Counted from the first letter of the stretch, positions 9,955-47,224 are shown. The stretch is 64,000 bases of DNA from Bacillota bacterium (GCA_003524085.1 DOEC01000006.1:1146-65145), one strand, 5' to 3'. The notes: a model not told the origin generated them from the letters alone. A program made the numbers and translations.

Positions 9955-10761
9955 TTATTTTCTTTTTAATCCTTTAGAATATAATTCGTTATATGACCCA
10001 TCCATTAAAGCTATTTGCATGTCTTCATAAATAGACTTTAATTCTTCTAAAGCAATATCTTTAAACATAGTCTGTCCATATATTTCTTCATTAACAGGCT
10101 CTAAAATATTTAAGTGACTCTTTAAAGTACTAGCTATTAATCTAAAGTTAAAGTAATTAAACTTACCTTTTTCATTGATAAACTTATGATAGAAATCAAT
10201 TAATGGACTAATAGATACTAATGTAGGATCATTATATTTTAGTGAGTCTCTTAAACATCTAAGTAAATCAAACTCATCTATACTGTCTCTTGAAGATGAC
10301 ATTATTTCTTTGCTTTTAATTAAGCTTTCAATATATTTTATGTCTCTTGAGTTTTCTCTAAGAGTTTTTTCTAACATTCCTCGGTTTAACAAATCCTTGT
10401 CTTTCTTATAAAATATTGGAAGTGTTCTAACATCTTTTTTAGCACGATACATAATTACTAATTTATGATTATTTCTTAAGTCAACGTCATAGTTAGACTT
10501 TAGTTCAAAGTCATTATTAAATCTAGTAGTAAAATTATCAATTTCTTCTAGTGTTGAAGGCATGGTTACTTTTAAATATTTAGTAAATTCTGCATAGCCT
10601 TCACTATAATGAAAGACTAAATTTCCAAGAAAATACTTGTTTTTAGCATCATCATTATATTTAGCAATTAACCTTTTAATTTCAGAAGTACTATACTTTT
10701 TAAAACTTCTAGTTTCAACCCCAGCCTTAATTCCAATACTATATCTATTAACTTTACCCAT
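9955..10761 (-). CDS. hypothetical protein
   Basis: ORF with RBS; no recognisable motifs. Confidence 0.5.
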   Translation of the reverse strand: MGKVNRYSIGIKAGVETRSFKKYSTSEIKRLIAKYNDDAKNKYFLGNLVFHYSEGYAEFTKYLKVTMPSTLEEIDNFTTRFNNDFELKSNYDVDLRNNHKLVIMYRAKKDVRTLPIFYKKDKDLLNRGMLEKTLRENSRDIKYIESLIKSKEIMSSSRDSIDEFDLLRCLRDSLKYNDPTLVSISPLIDFYHKFINEKGKFNYFNFRLIASTLKSHLNILEPVNEEIYGQTMFKDIALEELKSIYEDMQIALMDGSYNELYSKGLKRK

Positions 10762-10847
10762 AAGACACCCCTTATCTAGTTAAAATTATACCATATTTTG
10801 TACAATATGTCAACTTTACACATAAAGGTACTTTATTTGAATATGAT

Positions 10848-10931
10848 TAATTTATGATAATTCTTAGCTGCTACTTTAGCATTTTCATTTATTATTTCAG
10901 TCTTTATATTACTTAAATATTTTTCTTCCAT
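10848..10931 (-). pseudogene. 5' remnant (~28 codons) of a fourth tandem DUF1016 paralog, truncated
   Basis: DNA at 10858-10931 is homologous to the first ~75 nt of the DUF1016 copies (MEEKYLSNIKTEIINENAKVAAKNY...), then reads into unrelated sequence and a stop. The same RBS junction (CCTCCT) is found between copies. Confidence 0.6.
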
Positions 10932-10943
10932 AAGCTTTTCCTC

Positions 10944-11852
10944 CTAACTAATTTGCACAGTTTTATTTATTTTAAATTCTACTATAGTTACTTGATTATC
11001 TTTTACGTAATGAGCTTCAAACTTATTTACTGACTTTGTTATAATTATTCCAATAGTACTATTTTGAGTTATATTTTTTAAGTGTTCGTCAATATAGTTC
11101 ATATACGTTTTTATTTGACCATAGTCACTTTTCTTATATTCTCTTGATTTTATCTCTACTACACAATATCTACTTTCAACCACATTATAAAATAGATAGT
11201 CTATATAATTCTTTTTGTCTCCAATGTTAAGTTTATATTCTCTTCCGACGTAAAAATATCCACCGCCTAATTGTTTCATAAAACTATCTAAGTTTTCATA
11301 AATAATTTCTTGTAATATTTTTTCAGTATAAACTTCATAACTTTTATTAGGTGTTAACACTATTGGACTGGGGACACTTTGAATTAAAGAAAGTTCTTCT
11401 TTATTTAAAAGACTTTCTTTTGCTTCAGTTGAGAGTCTACCATACTCATTACTCTTTATTCTTTCAGCTAATGCTCTTTTACTTAAATTATCTCGTTTAG
11501 TAATATGAATATAATACTTAATTTCTTTGATATCTCTTAGTGATAATAAAATCTTGTAATGACTCCACGTCAATTGTCGCTCCAGTGGAGCGACTTTTTG
11601 AATTAATAAATAAAATTGTTGTATCTTATATAAATCTTTTTCCTTATATCCACTTCCAAATTCCTTAGTTAAAATACTTGCATATTTTTTTACTATTCCT
11701 TCTCCATAGTGTTTACCTGCTTCTACTAGTTCCCTTCCTATATTATAATTCATTGTAAGTTTTACATTATTTATCTGATAATTCTTAGCTACTACTTTAG
11801 CATTTCCATTTATTATTTCAGTCTTTATATTACTTAAATATTCGTCTATCAT
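10944..11852 (-). CDS. DUF1016/YhcG-family PD-(D/E)xK nuclease-like protein, tandem copy 1
   Basis: N-terminal YhcG-like block (NYNIGRELVEAGKHYGEGIVKKYA...QLTWSHY). C-terminal PD-(D/E)xK core (IDYLFYN...CVVEIKSREYKKSDYGQ). Confidence 0.7.
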   Translation of the reverse strand: MIDEYLSNIKTEIINGNAKVVAKNYQINNVKLTMNYNIGRELVEAGKHYGEGIVKKYASILTKEFGSGYKEKDLYKIQQFYLLIQKVAPLERQLTWSHYKILLSLRDIKEIKYYIHITKRDNLSKRALAERIKSNEYGRLSTEAKESLLNKEELSLIQSVPSPIVLTPNKSYEVYTEKILQEIIYENLDSFMKQLGGGYFYVGREYKLNIGDKKNYIDYLFYNVVESRYCVVEIKSREYKKSDYGQIKTYMNYIDEHLKNITQNSTIGIIITKSVNKFEAHYVKDNQVTIVEFKINKTVQIS

Positions 11853-11864
11853 AAATTTTCCCTC

Positions 11865-12773
11865 CTAACTAATTTGCACAGTTTTGTTTATTTTAAATTC
11901 TACTATAGTTACTTGATTATCTTTTACATAATGTGCTTCAAACTTGTTTACTGATTTTGTTATAATTATTCCAATAGTATTATTTTGAGTTATATTTTTT
12001 AAGTGTTCGTCAATGTAGTTCATATACGTTTTTATTTGACCATAATCGCTTTTTCTATATTCTCTTGCTTTTATTTCAACTACACAATATCTACTGTCAA
12101 CTACATTATAAAATAGATAATCTATATAATTCTTTTTGTCTCCAATGTTAAGTTTATATTCCCTACCAATAAAAGCGTAGCCTCCACCAAGTTGATGCAT
12201 AAAATCTTCTATATTTTCAAAGATTATTTCTTGTAATATTTTTTCAGTATAAACTTTATAACTTTTATTAGATGTCAACACTATTGGACTTGGGACACTT
12301 TGAATTAAAGAAAGTTCTTCTTTATTTAAAAGACTTTCTTTTGTTCCATCTGAAAGTCTATCATACTCATCACTTCTTATTATTTCAGCTAATTTTCTAT
12401 AACTTAAATTATCTCTTATAGAAATATTAGTATAATAATTGATTTTATTGATATCTTTTAAAGGTAAAAGTAATCTTATGTGTTCCCAAGTCAATTGGTG
12501 CGGCAATGCCGCACCTTTTTCAAAAAGAACATAAAATTGACGCATTCTCTTTAAATTAGATACAGAATATCCACTTCCAAATTCCTTAGTTAAAATACTT
12601 GCATATTTTTTTACTATTCCTTCTCCATAGTGTTTACCTGCTTCTACTAGTTTCCTTCCTATATTATAATTCATTGTAAGTTTTACATTATTTATCTGAT
12701 AATTCTTAGCTGCTACTTTAGCATTTCCATTTATTATTTCAGTCTTTATATTACTTAAATATTCGTCTATCAT
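11865..12773 (-). CDS. DUF1016/YhcG-family PD-(D/E)xK nuclease-like protein, tandem copy 2
   Basis: Over 85% identical to copy 1, with 12-nt intergenic gaps; differences are concentrated in aa ~68-130. Confidence 0.7.
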   Translation of the reverse strand: MIDEYLSNIKTEIINGNAKVAAKNYQINNVKLTMNYNIGRKLVEAGKHYGEGIVKKYASILTKEFGSGYSVSNLKRMRQFYVLFEKGAALPHQLTWEHIRLLLPLKDINKINYYTNISIRDNLSYRKLAEIIRSDEYDRLSDGTKESLLNKEELSLIQSVPSPIVLTSNKSYKVYTEKILQEIIFENIEDFMHQLGGGYAFIGREYKLNIGDKKNYIDYLFYNVVDSRYCVVEIKAREYRKSDYGQIKTYMNYIDEHLKNITQNNTIGIIITKSVNKFEAHYVKDNQVTIVEFKINKTVQIS

Positions 12774-12785
12774 AAATTTTCCCTC

Positions 12786-13694
12786 CTAACTAATTTGCAC
12801 AGTTTTGTTTATTTTAAATCCTACTATAGTTACTTGATTATCTTTTACATAATGAGCTTCAAACTTATTTACTGATTTTGTTATAATTATTCCAATAGTA
12901 CTATTTTGAGTTATAGTTTTCAAGTGTTCGTCAATGTAGTTCATATACGTTTTTATTTGGCCATAATCGCTTTTCTTATACTCTCTTACTTTTATTTCAA
13001 CTACACAAAAACAGTTCATTTTGTAATTGTATAAAAGATAGTCTATATAATTCTTTTTATCTCCAATATTGAGTTTATATTCTCTACCAATAAAAGAGTA
13101 TTCTCCACCAAGTTGATGCATAAAATCTTCTATATTTTCAAATATTATTTCTTGTAATATCTTCTCATTATAAAATTCATAGCTTTTATTTGGTGTCAAT
13201 ACTATCGGACTGGGTATGCTTTGAATTATTGAAAGCTCTTCTTTGTTTAAAATACCCTCTTTCGTTTCAGTTGAAAGTCTGCCATACTCATTACTTCTTA
13301 TTCTTTCAGCCAATGCTCTTTTGCTTAAATTATCTCGTTTAGTAATACTAATATAATACTTGATTTCTTCTACATTTTTTAATGGTAAAAGTAATTTATA
13401 ATGAGACCAAGTCAAAAGTTGCCCCACTGGAGCAACTTTTTGACTTAAATCATAAAATTGCTTCATTCTTGTTAATTCTGTAAAAGTATATCCCTTACCA
13501 AATTCTACCGTTAATTCCTTTGCATATTTTTTTACTATTCCTTCTCCATAATGTTTACCAGCTTCTGCTAGTTCCTTACCAATATTATAGTTCATTGTAA
13601 GTTTTACATTGTTTATCTGATAATTTTTAGCTATTACTTTAGCATTACCATTTATTATTTCATTCTTTATATTTTCTAAATAATTGTCTATCAT
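12786..13694 (-). CDS. DUF1016/YhcG-family PD-(D/E)xK nuclease-like protein, tandem copy 3
   Basis: As copy 2. Confidence 0.7.
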   Translation of the reverse strand: MIDNYLENIKNEIINGNAKVIAKNYQINNVKLTMNYNIGKELAEAGKHYGEGIVKKYAKELTVEFGKGYTFTELTRMKQFYDLSQKVAPVGQLLTWSHYKLLLPLKNVEEIKYYISITKRDNLSKRALAERIRSNEYGRLSTETKEGILNKEELSIIQSIPSPIVLTPNKSYEFYNEKILQEIIFENIEDFMHQLGGEYSFIGREYKLNIGDKKNYIDYLLYNYKMNCFCVVEIKVREYKKSDYGQIKTYMNYIDEHLKTITQNSTIGIIITKSVNKFEAHYVKDNQVTIVGFKINKTVQIS

Positions 13695-13702
13695 AAATTT
13701 TT

Positions 13703-13777
13703 CCTCCTAATATATTTATTCGACAAAAAACGCGAAAAGTCTTTTTTTTATTTTGACTTTACGCGAAATTCGACGTG
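13703..13777. repeat. 75-bp leader/promoter block, copy A (direct repeat partner at 26208-26281)
   Basis: cctcctaatatatttattcgacaaaaaacgcgaaaagtctttttttt...acgcgaaattcgacgtg is about 90% identical to 26208-26281. Contains an imperfect inverted repeat CGCGAAAAGTC...GACTTTACGCG. Confidence 0.8.
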
Positions 13778-13864
13778 TTTTTTTACATGTTTTGTGTAAA
13801 CTAAGTTATAAAAAAAGAAAGGATAAACAACTTATAAAAGCTATTTGCTCCTTCCCCATAAAAA

Positions 13865-13900
13865 TTGATGCTTTAGCAAAAGTAAGCATCAATTATTTTT
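13865..13900 (-). terminator. rho-independent terminator downstream of the arc operon transporter gene
   Basis: 9-bp stem TTGATGCTT/AAGCATCAA, flanked by an A-run on plus (U-run on the minus transcript) and a T-run on plus, so possibly bidirectional. Confidence 0.6.
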
Positions 13901-25266: not shown

Positions 25267-25454
25267 GTAGTTACAAATATATCACTAAATGTGGTTATTG
25301 TCAATTATTTTAGGTGTTTTATAAGTTACAAAATTAAGTGAATTCATTGGAAAACCTTTAACAAAACTAAAGGCAGCTAAATCTTTGATTTCTGTCAAAA
25401 AGGTGTGACAGTTTCGCACTTTTTTGAAAACATCTTATATGAGCCATTTAAATT

Positions 25455-25480
25455 TCCAACCACTGGTTGGAATTTTTTTG
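25455..25480 (+). terminator. perfect 9-1-9 hairpin TTCCAACCA-C-TGGTTGGAA followed by TTTTTTTG (terminator-like; possible 3' end of a small plus-strand transcript)
   Basis: Read directly. It has the same CCA-N-TGG core architecture as the intragenic palindromes of the DUF1016 copies. A TTGTCA-17-TATAAG promoter-like site lies ~160 bp upstream. Confidence 0.4.
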
Positions 25481-25604
25481 AAATTTGTTAGATGGTATTA
25501 TTATAGTACTAGGTACCATTTCTTTTGCTTGAGTTTCTGTTTTTTTCTTTTAATTTGATTTCTTGTTTTCAAAGATAATTTATCGTATTCATTAATTTTT
25601 ATTT

Positions 25605-25997
25605 TTTTCTCTAAGTGCACGCTCACTTAAATTACCTCGTTTAAGTTATATTAATGTAATACTTGATTTCTCCTAAGTTTTTTAAAGGTAAAAGTAATTT
25701 ATAATGTGACCAAGTCAATTGGTCATCCAATGGATGACCTTTTTCAATAAAATTATGGAATAATCTCATGTATTTAAGATTTGTAATCCCGTAATTTGTA
25801 CCAAATTCTTTTGTTAATTCTTTTGCATACTTTTTAACTATACCTTCGCCGTAGTGTTTACCAGCTTCTGCTAATTCCTTTCCAATATTATAATTCATTG
25901 TTAGTTTTACATTGTTTATCTGATAATTCTTAACTATTAATTTAGCATTACCATTTATTATTTCACTCCTTATATTCTCTAAATAATTTTCTTCCAT
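25605..25997 (-). pseudogene. decayed DUF1016/YhcG paralog (copy 4), truncated at 118 codons with in-frame stops
   Basis: The N-terminal 118 aa are ~80% identical to copies 1-3. Where copy 3 has AAA, an in-frame TAA occurs (…KYYINIT*), more stops follow, and homology is lost near 25605. Confidence 0.7.
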
Positions 25998-26207
25998 GAT
26001 TACATCCTTTCACCATTACAATTGCGTCTGTTTTAAATCTAGTGACAAAAATATTTTGTTTTAATATTCACGTATGTTTTCAAAATTAGTTTTCTCATAT
26101 TTTAAATATGAAATATAAACTTAGATAAATTCTTAATAAGAAATCTACTAGTTATCTTAAAAAATAATCTCATAATTTACTCTCCTTTCTAGGAAAGGCT
26201 TTTTAAC

Positions 26208-26281
26208 CCTCCTAATATATTTATTCGACAAAAAACGTGAAAAGCCTTTTTTTATTTTAACTTTACGCGAAATTTAACGTG
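26208..26281. repeat. 75-bp leader/promoter block, copy B (direct repeat partner of 13703-13777)
   Basis: See copy A. Here it lies ~210 bp upstream of the decayed copy 4. Confidence 0.8.
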
Positions 26282-26371
26282 AAATTTTACACAAAAATGT
26301 AAAATTTACTAGTGTTTTTATCATTGTCACTTAGTTGTCACTTTATATGTGATAAAATGACATAAATTTAG

Positions 26372-39310: not shown

Positions 39311-39387
39311 GGGGAATTAGCTCAGTTGGCTAGAGCACCTGCCTTGCACGCAGGGGGTCGCGGGTTCAAGTCCCACATTCTCCACCA
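39311..39387 (+). tRNA. tRNA-Ala (anticodon UGC), CCA encoded
   Basis: Cloverleaf readable by eye with G3:U70 and anticodon loop CTTGCAC; one C:A mismatch in the T-stem. Confidence 0.8.
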
Positions 39388-46130: not shown

Positions 46131-46207
46131 TGGTCGGGAAGACAGGATTTGAACCTGCAACCACTCGGTCCCAAACCGAGTGCTCTACCAAGTTGAGCCA
46201 CTTCCCG
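46131..46207 (-). tRNA. tRNA-Pro (UGG)
   Basis: Cloverleaf by eye: CGGGAAG acceptor, anticodon loop UUUGGGA, CCA encoded. Confidence 0.85.
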
Positions 46208-46212
46208 ATAAA

Positions 46213-46289
46213 TGGCGTCCCCAAGAGGAGTCGAACCCCTAACCTTTTGATCCGTAGTCAAACGCTCTATCCAGTTGAGCTATGAGGAC
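46213..46289 (-). tRNA. tRNA-Arg (ACG)
   Basis: GTCCTCATAGCTCAACTGGATAGAGC..., anticodon loop CUACGGA. Confidence 0.85.
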
Positions 46290-46332
46290 AGCCTGTCCAA
46301 AATATATATAAGCTCCGGCTGGCTTTTAAAAA

Positions 46333-46408
46333 TGGTGGCTTCAGTTGGAATCGAACCAACGACACCAAGATTTTCAGTCTTGTGCTCTGCCAACTGAGCT
46401 ATGAAGCC
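46333..46408 (-). tRNA. tRNA-Phe (GAA)
   Basis: GGCTTCATAGCTCAGTTGG..., anticodon loop CUGAAAA. Confidence 0.85.
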
Positions 46409-46412
46409 ACAA

Positions 46413-46488
46413 TGGCGGTTCCGACGGGAATTGAACCCGCGATCCCTCGCGTGACAGGCGAGTGTGATAACCGCTACACCACGGAACC
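46413..46488 (-). tRNA. tRNA-Asp (GUC)
   Basis: GGTTCCGTGGTGTAGCGG..., anticodon loop CUGUCAC. Confidence 0.85.
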
Positions 46489-46495
46489 TTATTTT

Positions 46496-46572
<77 letters not shown>

Positions 46573-46590
46573 ATGTTAGTTTTTTAATTT

Positions 46591-46683
46591 TGGCGGAGGA
46601 AAAGGGATTTGAACCCCTGCGCCGCTTTCACGACCTCCTGGTTTTCAAGACCAGTCCCTTCAGCCAGACTTGGGTATTCCTCC
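46591..46683 (-). tRNA. tRNA-Ser (UGA), long variable arm
   Basis: GGAGGAATACCCAAGTCTGG..., anticodon loop CUUGAAA, 93 nt. Confidence 0.85.
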
Positions 46684-46690
46684 AACAAGA

Positions 46691-46779
46691 TGGTGCCTCG
46701 GGCCGGACTTGAACCGGCACGGTATTTAACTACCGAGGGATTTTAAGTCCCTTGCGTCTACCAATTTCGCCACCGAGGC
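46691..46779 (-). tRNA. tRNA-Leu (UAA), long variable arm
   Basis: GCCTCGGTGGCGAAATTGGTAGACGC..., anticodon loop CUUAAAA, 89 nt. Confidence 0.85.
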
Positions 46780-46803
46780 GTGTCACAATTTTTTATTAAA
46801 AAA

Positions 46804-46879
46804 TGGTGACCCGCTGGAGATTCGAACTCCAGACCCCTTGATTAAAAGTCAAGTGCTCTACCGGCTGAGCTAGCGGGTC
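46804..46879 (-). tRNA. tRNA-Lys (UUU)
   Basis: GACCCGCTAGCTCAGCCGG..., anticodon loop CUUUUAA. Confidence 0.85.
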
Positions 46880-46891
46880 AATATTATAAAT

Positions 46892-46967
46892 TGGTTGCCT
46901 CGGCGGGATTCGAACCAGCGAAATGCACGAGTCAAAGTCGTGTGCCTTACCACTTGGCTACGAGGCA
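46892..46967 (-). tRNA. tRNA-Gln (UUG)
   Basis: TGCCTCGTAGCCAAGTGGTAAGGC..., anticodon loop CUUUGAC; one U:C mismatch in the T-stem. Confidence 0.75.
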
Positions 46968-46974
46968 ATCTAAG

Positions 46975-47058
46975 TGGTGGAGAGACATGGATTCGAACCA
47001 TGGAACCCGAAGGAACAGATTTACAGTCTGCCGCGTTTAGCCTCTTCGCTATCTCTCC
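46975..47058 (-). tRNA. tRNA-Tyr (GUA), long variable arm
   Basis: GGAGAGATAGCGAAG..., anticodon loop CUGUAAA, 84 nt. Confidence 0.85.
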
Positions 47059-47065
47059 AAAAAAA

Positions 47066-47141
<76 letters not shown>

Positions 47142-47147
47142 AAATTA

Positions 47148-47224
47148 TGGTGGGCGACGAGAGACTCGAACTCCCGACCTCCTGCTTGTAAGGCAGATGC
47201 TCTAACCAACTGAGCTAGTCGCCC
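47148..47224 (-). tRNA. tRNA-Val (UAC)
   Basis: GGGCGACTAGCTCAGTTGG..., anticodon loop CUUACAA. Confidence 0.85.

Follow-up and report, generated by a model that had tools for sequence, protein, structure and literature searches.

The subject of this study is a stretch of 64,000 nucleotides from a Bacillota bacterium (GCA_003524085.1, DOEC01000006.1:1146-65145), referred to here as the window, in which three tandem genes of the DUF1016/YhcG nuclease family each contain a GC-rich DNA palindrome at codons 87-93, two codons ahead of the codons for the motif L(T/S)W(S)H, with a sequence that differs from copy to copy. The palindrome forms the core of the block in which the copies vary and dictates residues 87-93, and the variable residues flanking it track its base pairs. 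Neither point was foreseen in an earlier description of this DNA, referred to here as the sequence-only reading, which had taken the variable block for a specificity region and was right in spirit. Across the family, the palindrome varies along with the residues that would read it, and recognition by each protein of the site in its own gene is therefore most likely. We hold it somewhat more probable than its converse that each paralog is a homodimeric site-specific nuclease with its cognate site within the gene that encodes it; the array would then comprise three orthogonal pairs of protein and site.

The array consists of three open reading frames (ORFs) of exactly 302 aa on the minus strand, arranged head to tail with a period of 921 nt and spacers of 12 nt, much as the sequence-only reading had described them. 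Copy A (12786-13694) is the first in transcription order and is followed by copy B (11865-12773) and copy C (10944-11852). The palindrome of copy A (13418-13436) reads GTTGCTCC-AGT-GGGGCAAC on the sense strand and forms 8 pairs with one T.G wobble; a perfect version of it, GGAGCAAC, is found elsewhere (L117). Those of copy B (12497-12515; sense strand GGTGCGGC-ATT-GCCGCACC) and copy C (11576-11594; sense strand GTCGCTCC-ACT-GGAGCGAC) are perfect, and the perfect A-type palindrome differs from that of copy C by one compensated base pair and the central base. The element was first spotted in a scan for terminator-like hairpins, which returned perfect GC-rich hairpins of different sequence at the same codons of copies B and C; a hairpin or palindrome was then seen at codons 87-93 in all copies examined, with stems of unrelated sequence.

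Among relatives, the position of the palindrome is fixed. A perfect stem of at least 7 bp occurs at the same site in 98 of the 119 distinct relatives with the motif, its centre lying about 11 nt before the codons for L(T/S)W(S)H, and the corresponding position bin holds 97 hairpin centres, as opposed to 11 or fewer in every other bin. Covariation was assessed in an ungapped alignment of 84 distinct 63-nt segments, in which k denotes the distance of a base pair from the palindrome centre. The core pairs k3-k8 are formed in 94-99% of the sequences, and pairing over the whole helix of 9 defined pairs amounts to 87%, a value lowered by the outermost pair, which is unpaired in most sequences. Double-sided compensatory changes are present at all 9 pairs (at k3-k8 in 32-47 of the 84 sequences each), and the covariation score of 0.654 compares with 0.139 ± 0.012 in shuffled alignments, none of the 500 reaching it, and with at most 0.104 when the partner is slid. 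G.U pairs are nearly absent (0-1 per pair). The stem has a GC content of 68% within genes of 24% GC, and the palindrome centre reads C-A-N-T-G, with the synonymous third-position A33 kept in 79/84 sequences against 44% expected from codon usage. In 68 representatives of less than 90% identity, codons 86-93 are the gene's only trough of synonymous variation (observed/expected 0.43-0.47) and its only peak of GC content at third codon positions (0.48-0.59, the baseline being about 0.12). These measures establish the palindrome as genuine and show that selection acts on it at the nucleotide level.

The palindromes also fall into discrete types of long standing, none of which recurs within a locus. 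The same 19-mer can be found in proteins of no more than 67-72% identity (CTTGCGACAGTGTCGCAAC and TGGCAGACACTGTCTGCCA are examples), and Escherichia coli has the arm TGGCAGAC as well; conversely, genes that are 90-92% identical in their remaining parts contain unrelated palindromes. None of 49 pairs of copies from the same locus shares its palindrome. Perfect GC-rich hairpins of at least 8 bp are found in the 64-kb window only in copies B and C, in a decayed copy, at an orphan site (25454-25472) and once in a tRNA. A search of the window for extra target copies of the palindromes returned none, even with up to 4 mismatches or as 9-nt half-sites.

The palindrome is not restricted to the close relatives of the array. 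E. coli K-12 yhcG, whose protein is 27% identical to copy A, contains at the homologous site a perfect palindrome of 33 bp with 15-bp arms, AAAGATTTGGCAGAC-GCT-GTCTGCCAAATCTTT. Two shorter hairpins with the same CAGAC/GTCTG core are present in yhcG (L018, 12828-13955) at codons 103 and 116, within an insertion of 32 aa that the gut proteins lack, an arrangement suggestive of a duplication of the element. Distant members of 23-31% identity were sampled from Bacillota, Fusobacteriota, Gamma-, Beta- and Alphaproteobacteria, Cyanobacteria, Actinomycetota, Bacteroidota and Deinococcota, and 12 of the 17 have a perfect palindrome with arms of 7-15 bp at the homologous site, two further ones having one with a single G.T. 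The genera that bear it include Clostridium, Cetobacterium, Citrobacter, Enterobacter, Nostoc, Pseudanabaena, Vibrio, Legionella, Burkholderia, Rhodococcus and Curtobacterium, and solitary members in other phyla retain it without paralogs.

The second line of evidence is the association of palindrome base pairs with particular residues of the protein, numbered here as in copy A and given with the left-arm base. In a ranking by normalised mutual information, from which the residues encoded by the palindrome itself were excluded, k3 is associated with residue 125 (0.87), k8 with residue 75 (0.88), k7 with residue 72 (0.65) and k6 with residue 76 (0.61). For k3 all other positions outside the palindrome remain at or below 0.45, and for k8 the next best position is residue 71 (0.57). 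Fisher tests on 58 distinct palindromes resolve these associations into classes of residues (counts given as both/residue only/base only/neither). At residue 125, C at k3 goes with K/R (20/0/1/37, p = 1e-14), A with V/I/L/M (24/2/1/31, p = 6e-13) and G with Y (9/0/1/48, p = 9e-10), and K/R goes with G at k8 for residue 75 (33/3/0/22, p = 4e-13), at k6 for residue 76 (27/6/0/25, p = 4e-11), at k7 for residue 72 (14/2/6/36, p = 3.5e-7) and at k4 for residue 129 (27/8/3/20, p = 1.5e-6), as well as with C at k4 for residue 100 (13/5/2/38, p = 2e-7). Associations that reflect only shared ancestry within clades lie at about 3e-6 to 1e-5 and are scattered over the whole protein. The pairing of Lys/Arg with G and of Val/Ile with A.T agrees with the usual chemistry of major-groove readout. 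Two predicted helices hold most of these residues, one with 72, 75 and 76 at a spacing of i, i+3, i+4 and the other with 125 and 129 at i, i+4.

Palindromes of five independent backgrounds repeat the k3 code. On TGGAAC-(G/A/C)-CA, residue 125 is Y, V or R, respectively, in proteins that are 67-70% identical; on AGCCAG-(G/A)-CA it is Y or V, on GGTCAT-(G/C)-CA it is Y or K, and on GGTGCG-(G/C/A)-CA it is Y, K or I. The background CACCAG-(G/A)-CA, with T or V, provides the sole exception on these backgrounds to the rule that G goes with Y. YhcG of E. coli, whose palindrome and protein were read by eye, fits the code with A at k3 and the sequence WSVRQL. In the array, the five positions are occupied by T72, T75, R76, K100 and K125 in copy A, by S72, K75, R76, R100 and Y125 in copy B and by K72, Y75, K76, K100 and K125 in copy C.

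The region that contains some of these residues is similar to a known DNA-binding domain. The Pfam model HTH_ParB (PF17762), which describes a helix-turn-helix (HTH), has matches that run from LSWSH to LSxRxL in several homologs (P0123 with 28.7 bits, E 1.5e-6; P0165 with 23.2 bits; curated cut-off 22.6) and, more weakly, in P0124 and the Enterobacter protein L114. With a profile of 36 diverse N-domains, Spo0J of Bacillus subtilis (6sdk) was the best match among PDB sequences (E 0.009), LSWSHY...NLSVRQL being aligned with LSMGHGR...LNVRQLE of Spo0J 152-195. Residue 100 is thereby aligned with Spo0J R161, which we take to be the equivalent of R204 in Caulobacter ParB. Residues 72, 75 and 76 follow a GKGY motif whose distance from L(T/S)xxH, 28 residues, presumably equals that of GKSR in ParB; we regard this mapping onto Caulobacter ParB as a lead. 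In Caulobacter ParB, recognition helix alpha4, which follows G170-K171-S172, contacts parS together with alpha6 and alpha8, R204 touches DNA, and positions 173, 179, 184 and 201 set the specificity for parS or NBS (PMC7383237). An hhalign comparison of the family profile with a ParB segment was not significant, and an N-terminal ParB/Srx CTPase domain is lacking, as no ParBc match was obtained in the 34 members scanned. The stretch with residues 100, 125 and 129 resembles the DNA-binding domain of ParB/Spo0J, judged by these matches. In an AlphaFold2 model, two helices are connected by a loop of low confidence that comprises residues 88-92, for which the palindrome codes.

The C-terminal half identifies the proteins as candidate nucleases. 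All three copies match Pfam DUF1016_N (PF17761) and YhcG_C (PF06250) with E 1e-25 to 1e-31 and scores of 88-96 and 101-108 bits against cut-offs of about 32.5, and the PD-(D/E)xK motif E...D...E-x-K is intact, with E205, D218, E233 and K235 invariant in A, B and C, as described for the family (PMC1189080). The assignment to DUF1016/YhcG PD-(D/E)xK nucleases made in the sequence-only reading thus stands. The AlphaFold2 model, which is based on a shallow alignment, is confident for the C-terminal domain; Foldseek matched this nuclease domain only and weakly, with NucS (2vld), Cas4 (4ic1) and Hje (1ob8) as the best folds (all with E of at least 2e-3), and Cas4 is also its best PDB sequence match.

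Divergence among the copies is concentrated on the palindrome. Overall they are 78-81% identical, which is less than the near-identity that the sequence-only reading had claimed. Its statement that the N-terminal ~65 residues are almost the same holds for B and C (~99% identity over codons 1-60) and fails for A, which is ~88% identical to both there; for the C-terminal ~170 residues it holds in the last 60 codons (94-98% in all three copies), A and B being 90-92% identical over codons 166-210. Identity falls to 59-74% in codons 61-120, and windowed nucleotide identity and the ratio of non-synonymous to synonymous divergence (dN/dS), for copy A also the entropy profile, delimit a variable cassette of codons 62-130 at 13305-13511 in copy A, 12384-12590 in copy B and 11463-11669 in copy C (all minus strand). 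The block QLTW(S/E)H, which had been placed after the variable region, lies within it. In a set of 117 close homologs, residues 70-100 are the most variable, and the variation resolves into 9 or more discrete types of cassette. Synonymous divergence (dS) between B and C is 0.00 in codons 1-67 and 0.69 in codons 68-130, which, together with chimeric copies, bears out the gene conversion proposed earlier. The ratio dN/dS is raised to 0.42-0.77 in codons 68-130 as opposed to 0.06-0.34 elsewhere and never exceeds 1.

The number of copies differs among strains, as that reading had anticipated, with one, two or three at the same locus. The exact copy A protein is present on 23 metagenome contigs. 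Seven loci obtained from two look-ups with copy A comprise five with three copies and two with two copies, copy B being the one missing, and a further locus found separately (L116) has a single chimeric copy at this site (L116:4001-4909). In the chimera, ~13 nt of an A-type cassette, exactly the loop and the right arm of the palindrome, are replaced by C-type sequence, and this conversion tract leaves a T.G wobble in the stem. A second array locus between dltA and miaB, the site of the decayed copy in the window, has two intact and two decayed copies in L015, and a third, after a sigH-like gene, has one, two or three copies. Since two or more copies are present at 31 of the 87 related loci fetched, 80 of which are metagenome loci with a flank of only 1.5 kb, tandem arrays are habitual in this subfamily. 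Programmed variation by a diversity-generating retroelement, a shufflon or invertible cassettes found no support, as the Pfam matches in the 10 kb to each side include neither a reverse transcriptase nor a recombinase domain and the copies are without exception direct repeats.

Further traces of the family lie 12 kb from the array, where the sequence-only reading had correctly recognised a decayed copy with its own duplicated leader. The decayed N-terminal copy extends over 25540-25997 on the minus strand and consists of an ORF of 118 aa (25641-25997) and a frameshifted remnant to about 25540. It has kept a perfect palindrome at 25721-25739 (sense strand GGTCATCC-ATT-GGATGACC). The orphan at 25454-25472, downstream of the decayed copy, is likewise perfect and of the DUF1016 type; it reads TTCCAACC-ACT-GGTTGGAA, T7 follows it on the plus strand, and no gene can be recognised around it any longer; an intact gene in L043 holds a near-identical palindrome with the same arms and another central base. 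The second copy of the leader (26208-26291, minus strand), a repeat of the 85-nt leader of the array, is separated from the decayed ORF by ~210 nt of unrelated sequence. Between the two, at 26040-26175 on the minus strand, there is a hydrophobic ORF of 23 aa, MRLFFKITSRFLIKNLSKFIFHI, preceded by a good ribosome-binding site.

According to the reading that we favour, an N-terminal helical DNA-binding domain related to the HTH of ParB/Spo0J would be joined to a C-terminal PD-(D/E)xK nuclease domain like that of Hjc, NucS and Cas4. Codons 62-130 would represent the DNA-reading module, with the odd-centred palindrome of ~19 bp at its centre, and residues 72/75/76, 100 and 125/129 on the flanking helices would read the base pairs of the palindrome. 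We put the binding of the proteins to the palindrome at slightly better than an even chance, and GTTGCTCCAGTGGGGCAAC, GGTGCGGCATTGCCGCACC and GTCGCTCCACTGGAGCGAC are the predicted sites for A, B and C. The cognate site would thus be situated between the codons of two DNA-contacting helices, and reader and site would be inherited as one cassette. Such a cassette would explain why the divergence peak coincides with the palindrome, why the types are discrete and long-lived and why co-resident copies always differ, and the variability of loop 87-93 would be imposed by the DNA. The array would grow and shrink by unequal crossing-over, and its ends would be homogenised by gene conversion. Extended to the family, the proposal, which we advance tentatively and consider slightly less probable than not, is that every YhcG/DUF1016 gene is a one-gene module of protein and site, in which a ParB-like HTH nuclease and its embedded site diversify together under a readable code, arrays being orthogonal sets and the site possibly serving as the address or antidote of the nuclease by autorepression, tethering or addiction. 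For the role of the site we would favour self-recognition of a potentially toxic nuclease, by roadblock autorepression or tethering; alternatively, the site might be cleaved so as to set off gene conversion, or play a part resembling addiction. Self-recognition is more speculative than binding, as is an action of the family in defence or exclusion, and any specific downstream role of the site is well below binding in our confidence.

Several results weigh against this interpretation. The palindrome is missing in 3 of the 17 distant members, and HTH_ParB is not matched by copies A, B and C of the window at E <= 1. The match with Spo0J in the PDB is marginal, and the sequences align only after the palindrome; the AlphaFold2 model is poor for residues 1-69 and 88-92, and the covarying residues cannot be placed on it. 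Palindromes that differ only at k3 come from proteins that are 16-53% diverged, and two unrelated positions likewise change in 9/9 of such pairs, so that the evidence lies in the consistent mapping of base to residue class and not in the change itself. Perfect palindromes survive in the dead copy and as an orphan, although a site of relevance to no protein but its own would be expected to disappear there. Nor is there an obvious target for a nuclease whose one cognate site in the genome is located in its own gene. Finally, each base pair of the palindrome also alters a residue of loop 87-93, so that the code could in principle reflect packing inside the protein, of the loop against the associated residues, instead of DNA readout; we estimate from standard residue volumes that the side chains of residues 89 and 125 presumably compensate each other. 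We treat this packing as a formal alternative, and it would not predict K/R opposite G at four positions.

Other explanations dispense with recognition by the protein. A hairpin that acts in RNA or transcription independently of the protein, as an intrinsic terminator of antisense transcription, by attenuation or pausing, or by protecting mRNA from decay, with the covariation of residues due to packing of loop 87-93 against neighbouring helices, is in our view unlikely. On the antisense strand of the array lineage, the GC-rich hairpin is followed by T5-T7, as in an intrinsic terminator, and it was classed as terminator-like by the scan; of the 13 transition-type mismatches in the gut subfamily, 11 are A.C on the sense strand, which corresponds to G.U in an antisense RNA, and 2 are G.T; and the palindrome survives in dead copies. 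An antisense RNA of E. coli yhcG has been reported, but at the 5' end of the gene (PMC7967276). In the distant members (including E. coli, Rhodococcus, Nostoc and Enterobacter), no U-tract follows the hairpin on either strand, so termination cannot be the shared function of the palindrome. The antisense promoter is not conserved, and the synonymous sites of codons 269-279 are unconstrained. G.U pairs are almost absent from the stem, and the wobbles of distant members are on the sense strand (G.T in Moraxella and Deinococcus, as in copy A), so that neither strand is favoured. The retention of identical 19-mers across 30% protein divergence, the regularity of K/R with G and the similarity to ParB would all be left unexplained. 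Three more specific candidates were rejected: as a conserved feature, an antisense RNA with its start at TTCAAA-18-TGnTATAAT, a promoter sequence towards the 3' end of every copy, since synonymous sites there are unconstrained in the 68 representatives; on inspection of the sequences, a sense terminator or -1 frameshift at CAAAAAG plus hairpin, as the hairpin abuts the A-run and distant members have neither A-run nor U-run; and an internal start codon in the NTG loop, as distant members have other loops and the feature is not general.

Somewhat less probable still is an ordinary array of defence-candidate paralogs under diversifying selection at the protein level for different foreign targets, much as the sequence-only reading had proposed, in which the palindrome has no function and perpetuates itself by template-switch repair of quasi-palindromes. 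Template switching would be expected to yield strict Watson-Crick pairs and few intermediates, as is seen here, and perfect palindromes are found in pseudogene remnants; the copies match the PADLOC model PDC-S02, 4 of the 17 distant members are plasmid homologs located between hsdM and hsdS, and the family is enriched next to phase-variable restriction-modification (R-M) systems (PMC9881135). Against this, Bacillota, Proteobacteria, Cyanobacteria and Actinomycetota all retain a palindrome of unrelated sequence at one and the same codon position, and the strong selection at synonymous and loop positions and the conservation of specific 19-mers over long periods argue against neutrality, as dN/dS below 1 and a location outside a defence island do against the defence array. 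The least likely is a recombination or mutation device, that is, a cruciform or hairpin hotspot for cassette exchange, conversion and duplication that the Hjc-like nuclease may cut as HO cuts MAT: the divergence peak centred on the palindrome, the ~13-nt tract in L116 that covers exactly loop and right arm, the variable copy number at three loci, the resemblance of the nuclease domain to Holliday-junction resolvases (PMC1189080) and the N-terminal stumps as potential donors fit it, but most mosaic breakpoints are elsewhere (near codons 60, 105-135, 165 and 210), solitary members in other phyla keep the palindrome without paralogs, and the position-specific code between residues and base pairs is unexplained.

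With regard to its expression, the array is preceded by a leader of 85 nt (13703-13787, minus strand), which lies upstream of copy A, ends in a ribosome-binding site and is conserved. It contains the inverted repeat CGCGTAAAGTC-N13-GACTTTTCGCG, followed by T6 just ahead of the ribosome-binding site, and folds with -18.2 kcal/mol (z = -2.9); this arrangement looks like a terminator or attenuator. The leader is also conserved at the DUF1016 loci L003 and L004, and a diverged version is present at the third locus (L002, L016, L017). A ribosome-binding site, TAGGAGG, overlaps the stop codon ahead of each 12-nt spacer, and the scan for hairpins and terminators found no terminator-like site on the sense strand inside the array. 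Co-transcription of the three copies, which the sequence-only reading had deduced from the short gaps, is plausible on these grounds. The array is closed after copy C by the stump of a fourth copy, an ORF of 32 aa (10833-10931, minus strand) that repeats the first codons of the gene and then diverges. A fragment of 84 bp had been noted here at 10848-10931; the fragment is real, but the ORF is longer and the resemblance to the 5' end of the gene extends to about 10855. The stump is found in every related strain at the array locus, whatever the copy number.

The closest named genome is "Clostridium sp. CAG:628", and related metagenome-assembled genomes are labelled as uncultured Bacilli from the human gut. 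The array is flanked on one side by the arginine deiminase operon arcA-arcB-arcC-arcD (antiporter), with its own terminator near 13860-13893, and on the other by an ORF of 268 aa and then spoIIGA-sigE-secE-nusG. The 268-aa ORF (9955-10761, minus strand) has a perfect promoter, TTGACA-17-TGnTATAAT, at 10785-10813; it has no match in NCBIfam or PADLOC, and no Pfam match is recorded for it in any related strain. With these neighbours the array is not in a defence island or an R-M locus, the settings that the sequence-only reading had named for the family. The PDC-S02 hidden Markov models for a candidate defence gene match the copies with E 1e-52 to 1e-56 and supply the only basis for a putative defence role of the array, which the local context does not support. 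A search with Rfam 15 at the gathering score returned only tRNAs in the window. A cluster of 12 tRNA genes at 46134-47224 (minus strand) and a separate one at 39311-39384 (plus strand) have no relation to the array.

Outside the window, 468 plasmid records matched the family; phage records numbered 13, mostly Wolbachia WO and gut fragments, and viral contigs gave a single distant relative. Clusters of paralogs were already known in Rickettsia (PMC1189080, PMC4316617). On four plasmids, from Clostridium, Cetobacterium, Citrobacter and Deinococcus (L100, L101, L102, L115), the DUF1016 gene is located between hsdM and hsdS of a type I R-M system, the one on the Deinococcus plasmid being unannotated. 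A site-specific integrase gene ends 9 nt ahead of the DUF1016 gene on a Vibrio plasmid (L104) and overlaps it by 4 nt on an Enterobacter plasmid (L114), both operon-like; near-identical matches occur on plasmids of Leclercia, Citrobacter and Enterobacter (H10-H13), and a second set on plasmids of Klebsiella and Pseudomonas (H16-H19). A metagenomic homolog of double length (P0121, 596 aa) appears to be two tandem copies fused in one ORF.

DUF1016/YhcG is a large and widely transferred family, present in E. coli K-12, R-M operons, conjugative elements and plasmids, for which the palindrome offers a testable handle; E. coli yhcG becomes directly testable as a member. Should the palindrome prove to be the cognate site, thousands of members would reveal their DNA specificity in the sequences of their own genes. 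The code between residues and bases (125-k3, 75-k8, 76-k6) would then be open to binding assays and point mutants, and a DNA-binding protein and its site would be seen to co-evolve in the tightest possible linkage. For scans of variation in general, the array is a caution that a peak of hypervariability in a protein can stem from a nucleic-acid element hidden in the coding sequence.

Of the known systems, ParB/Spo0J-parS and its relatives Noc-NBS and KorB-OB are the closest to the proposed reader. B. subtilis spo0J itself contains a parS site. The L(S/T)W(S)H...LSxRxL stretch matches HTH_ParB and Spo0J, the putative site is palindromic in the style of a dimer, as for ParB and Noc, and specificity there is switched by a few residues of alpha4 and alpha6 (PMC7383237), where the covarying residues appear to map. 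In contrast to ParB, DUF1016 proteins have neither the N-terminal CTPase domain nor a ParA partner, their HTH would be fused to a nuclease, and their palindromes are odd-centred, different in each paralog and always between the codons of the two putative DNA-contacting helices. Other YhcG/DUF1016 proteins (COG4804, PADLOC PDC-S02) share both Pfam domains, the E-D-E.K motif and the paralog clusters, but this array lies among housekeeping genes and not at an R-M locus or on a mobile element. The C-terminal domain has weak fold matches with Hjc/Hje, NucS and Cas4, which read DNA structure and lack a ParB-like domain. Homodimeric PD-(D/E)xK nucleases with palindromic sites are known from type IIP restriction endonucleases and from homing endonucleases such as I-Ssp6803I. 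The long proposed site of about 19 bp is reminiscent of a homing endonuclease site, but it is intact inside the nuclease gene and not in a gene-less allele; unlike type IIP enzymes, the array has no methyltransferase partner in the window, and cleavage by its proteins is predicted. In the C proteins of R-M systems (C-box) and in toxin-antitoxin operators, an HTH protein reads a palindrome of its own operon and thereby limits a dangerous nuclease, and distinct specificities avoid cross-talk. The DUF1016 operator would differ in being within the coding sequence, with reader and nuclease in one polypeptide. In the literature searched, we found no report on the function, DNA site or palindrome of YhcG/DUF1016 and no functional study of the family, including protection from phages or plasmids. 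The embedded, co-evolving palindrome and the reading of the N-domain as ParB-like appear to be new.

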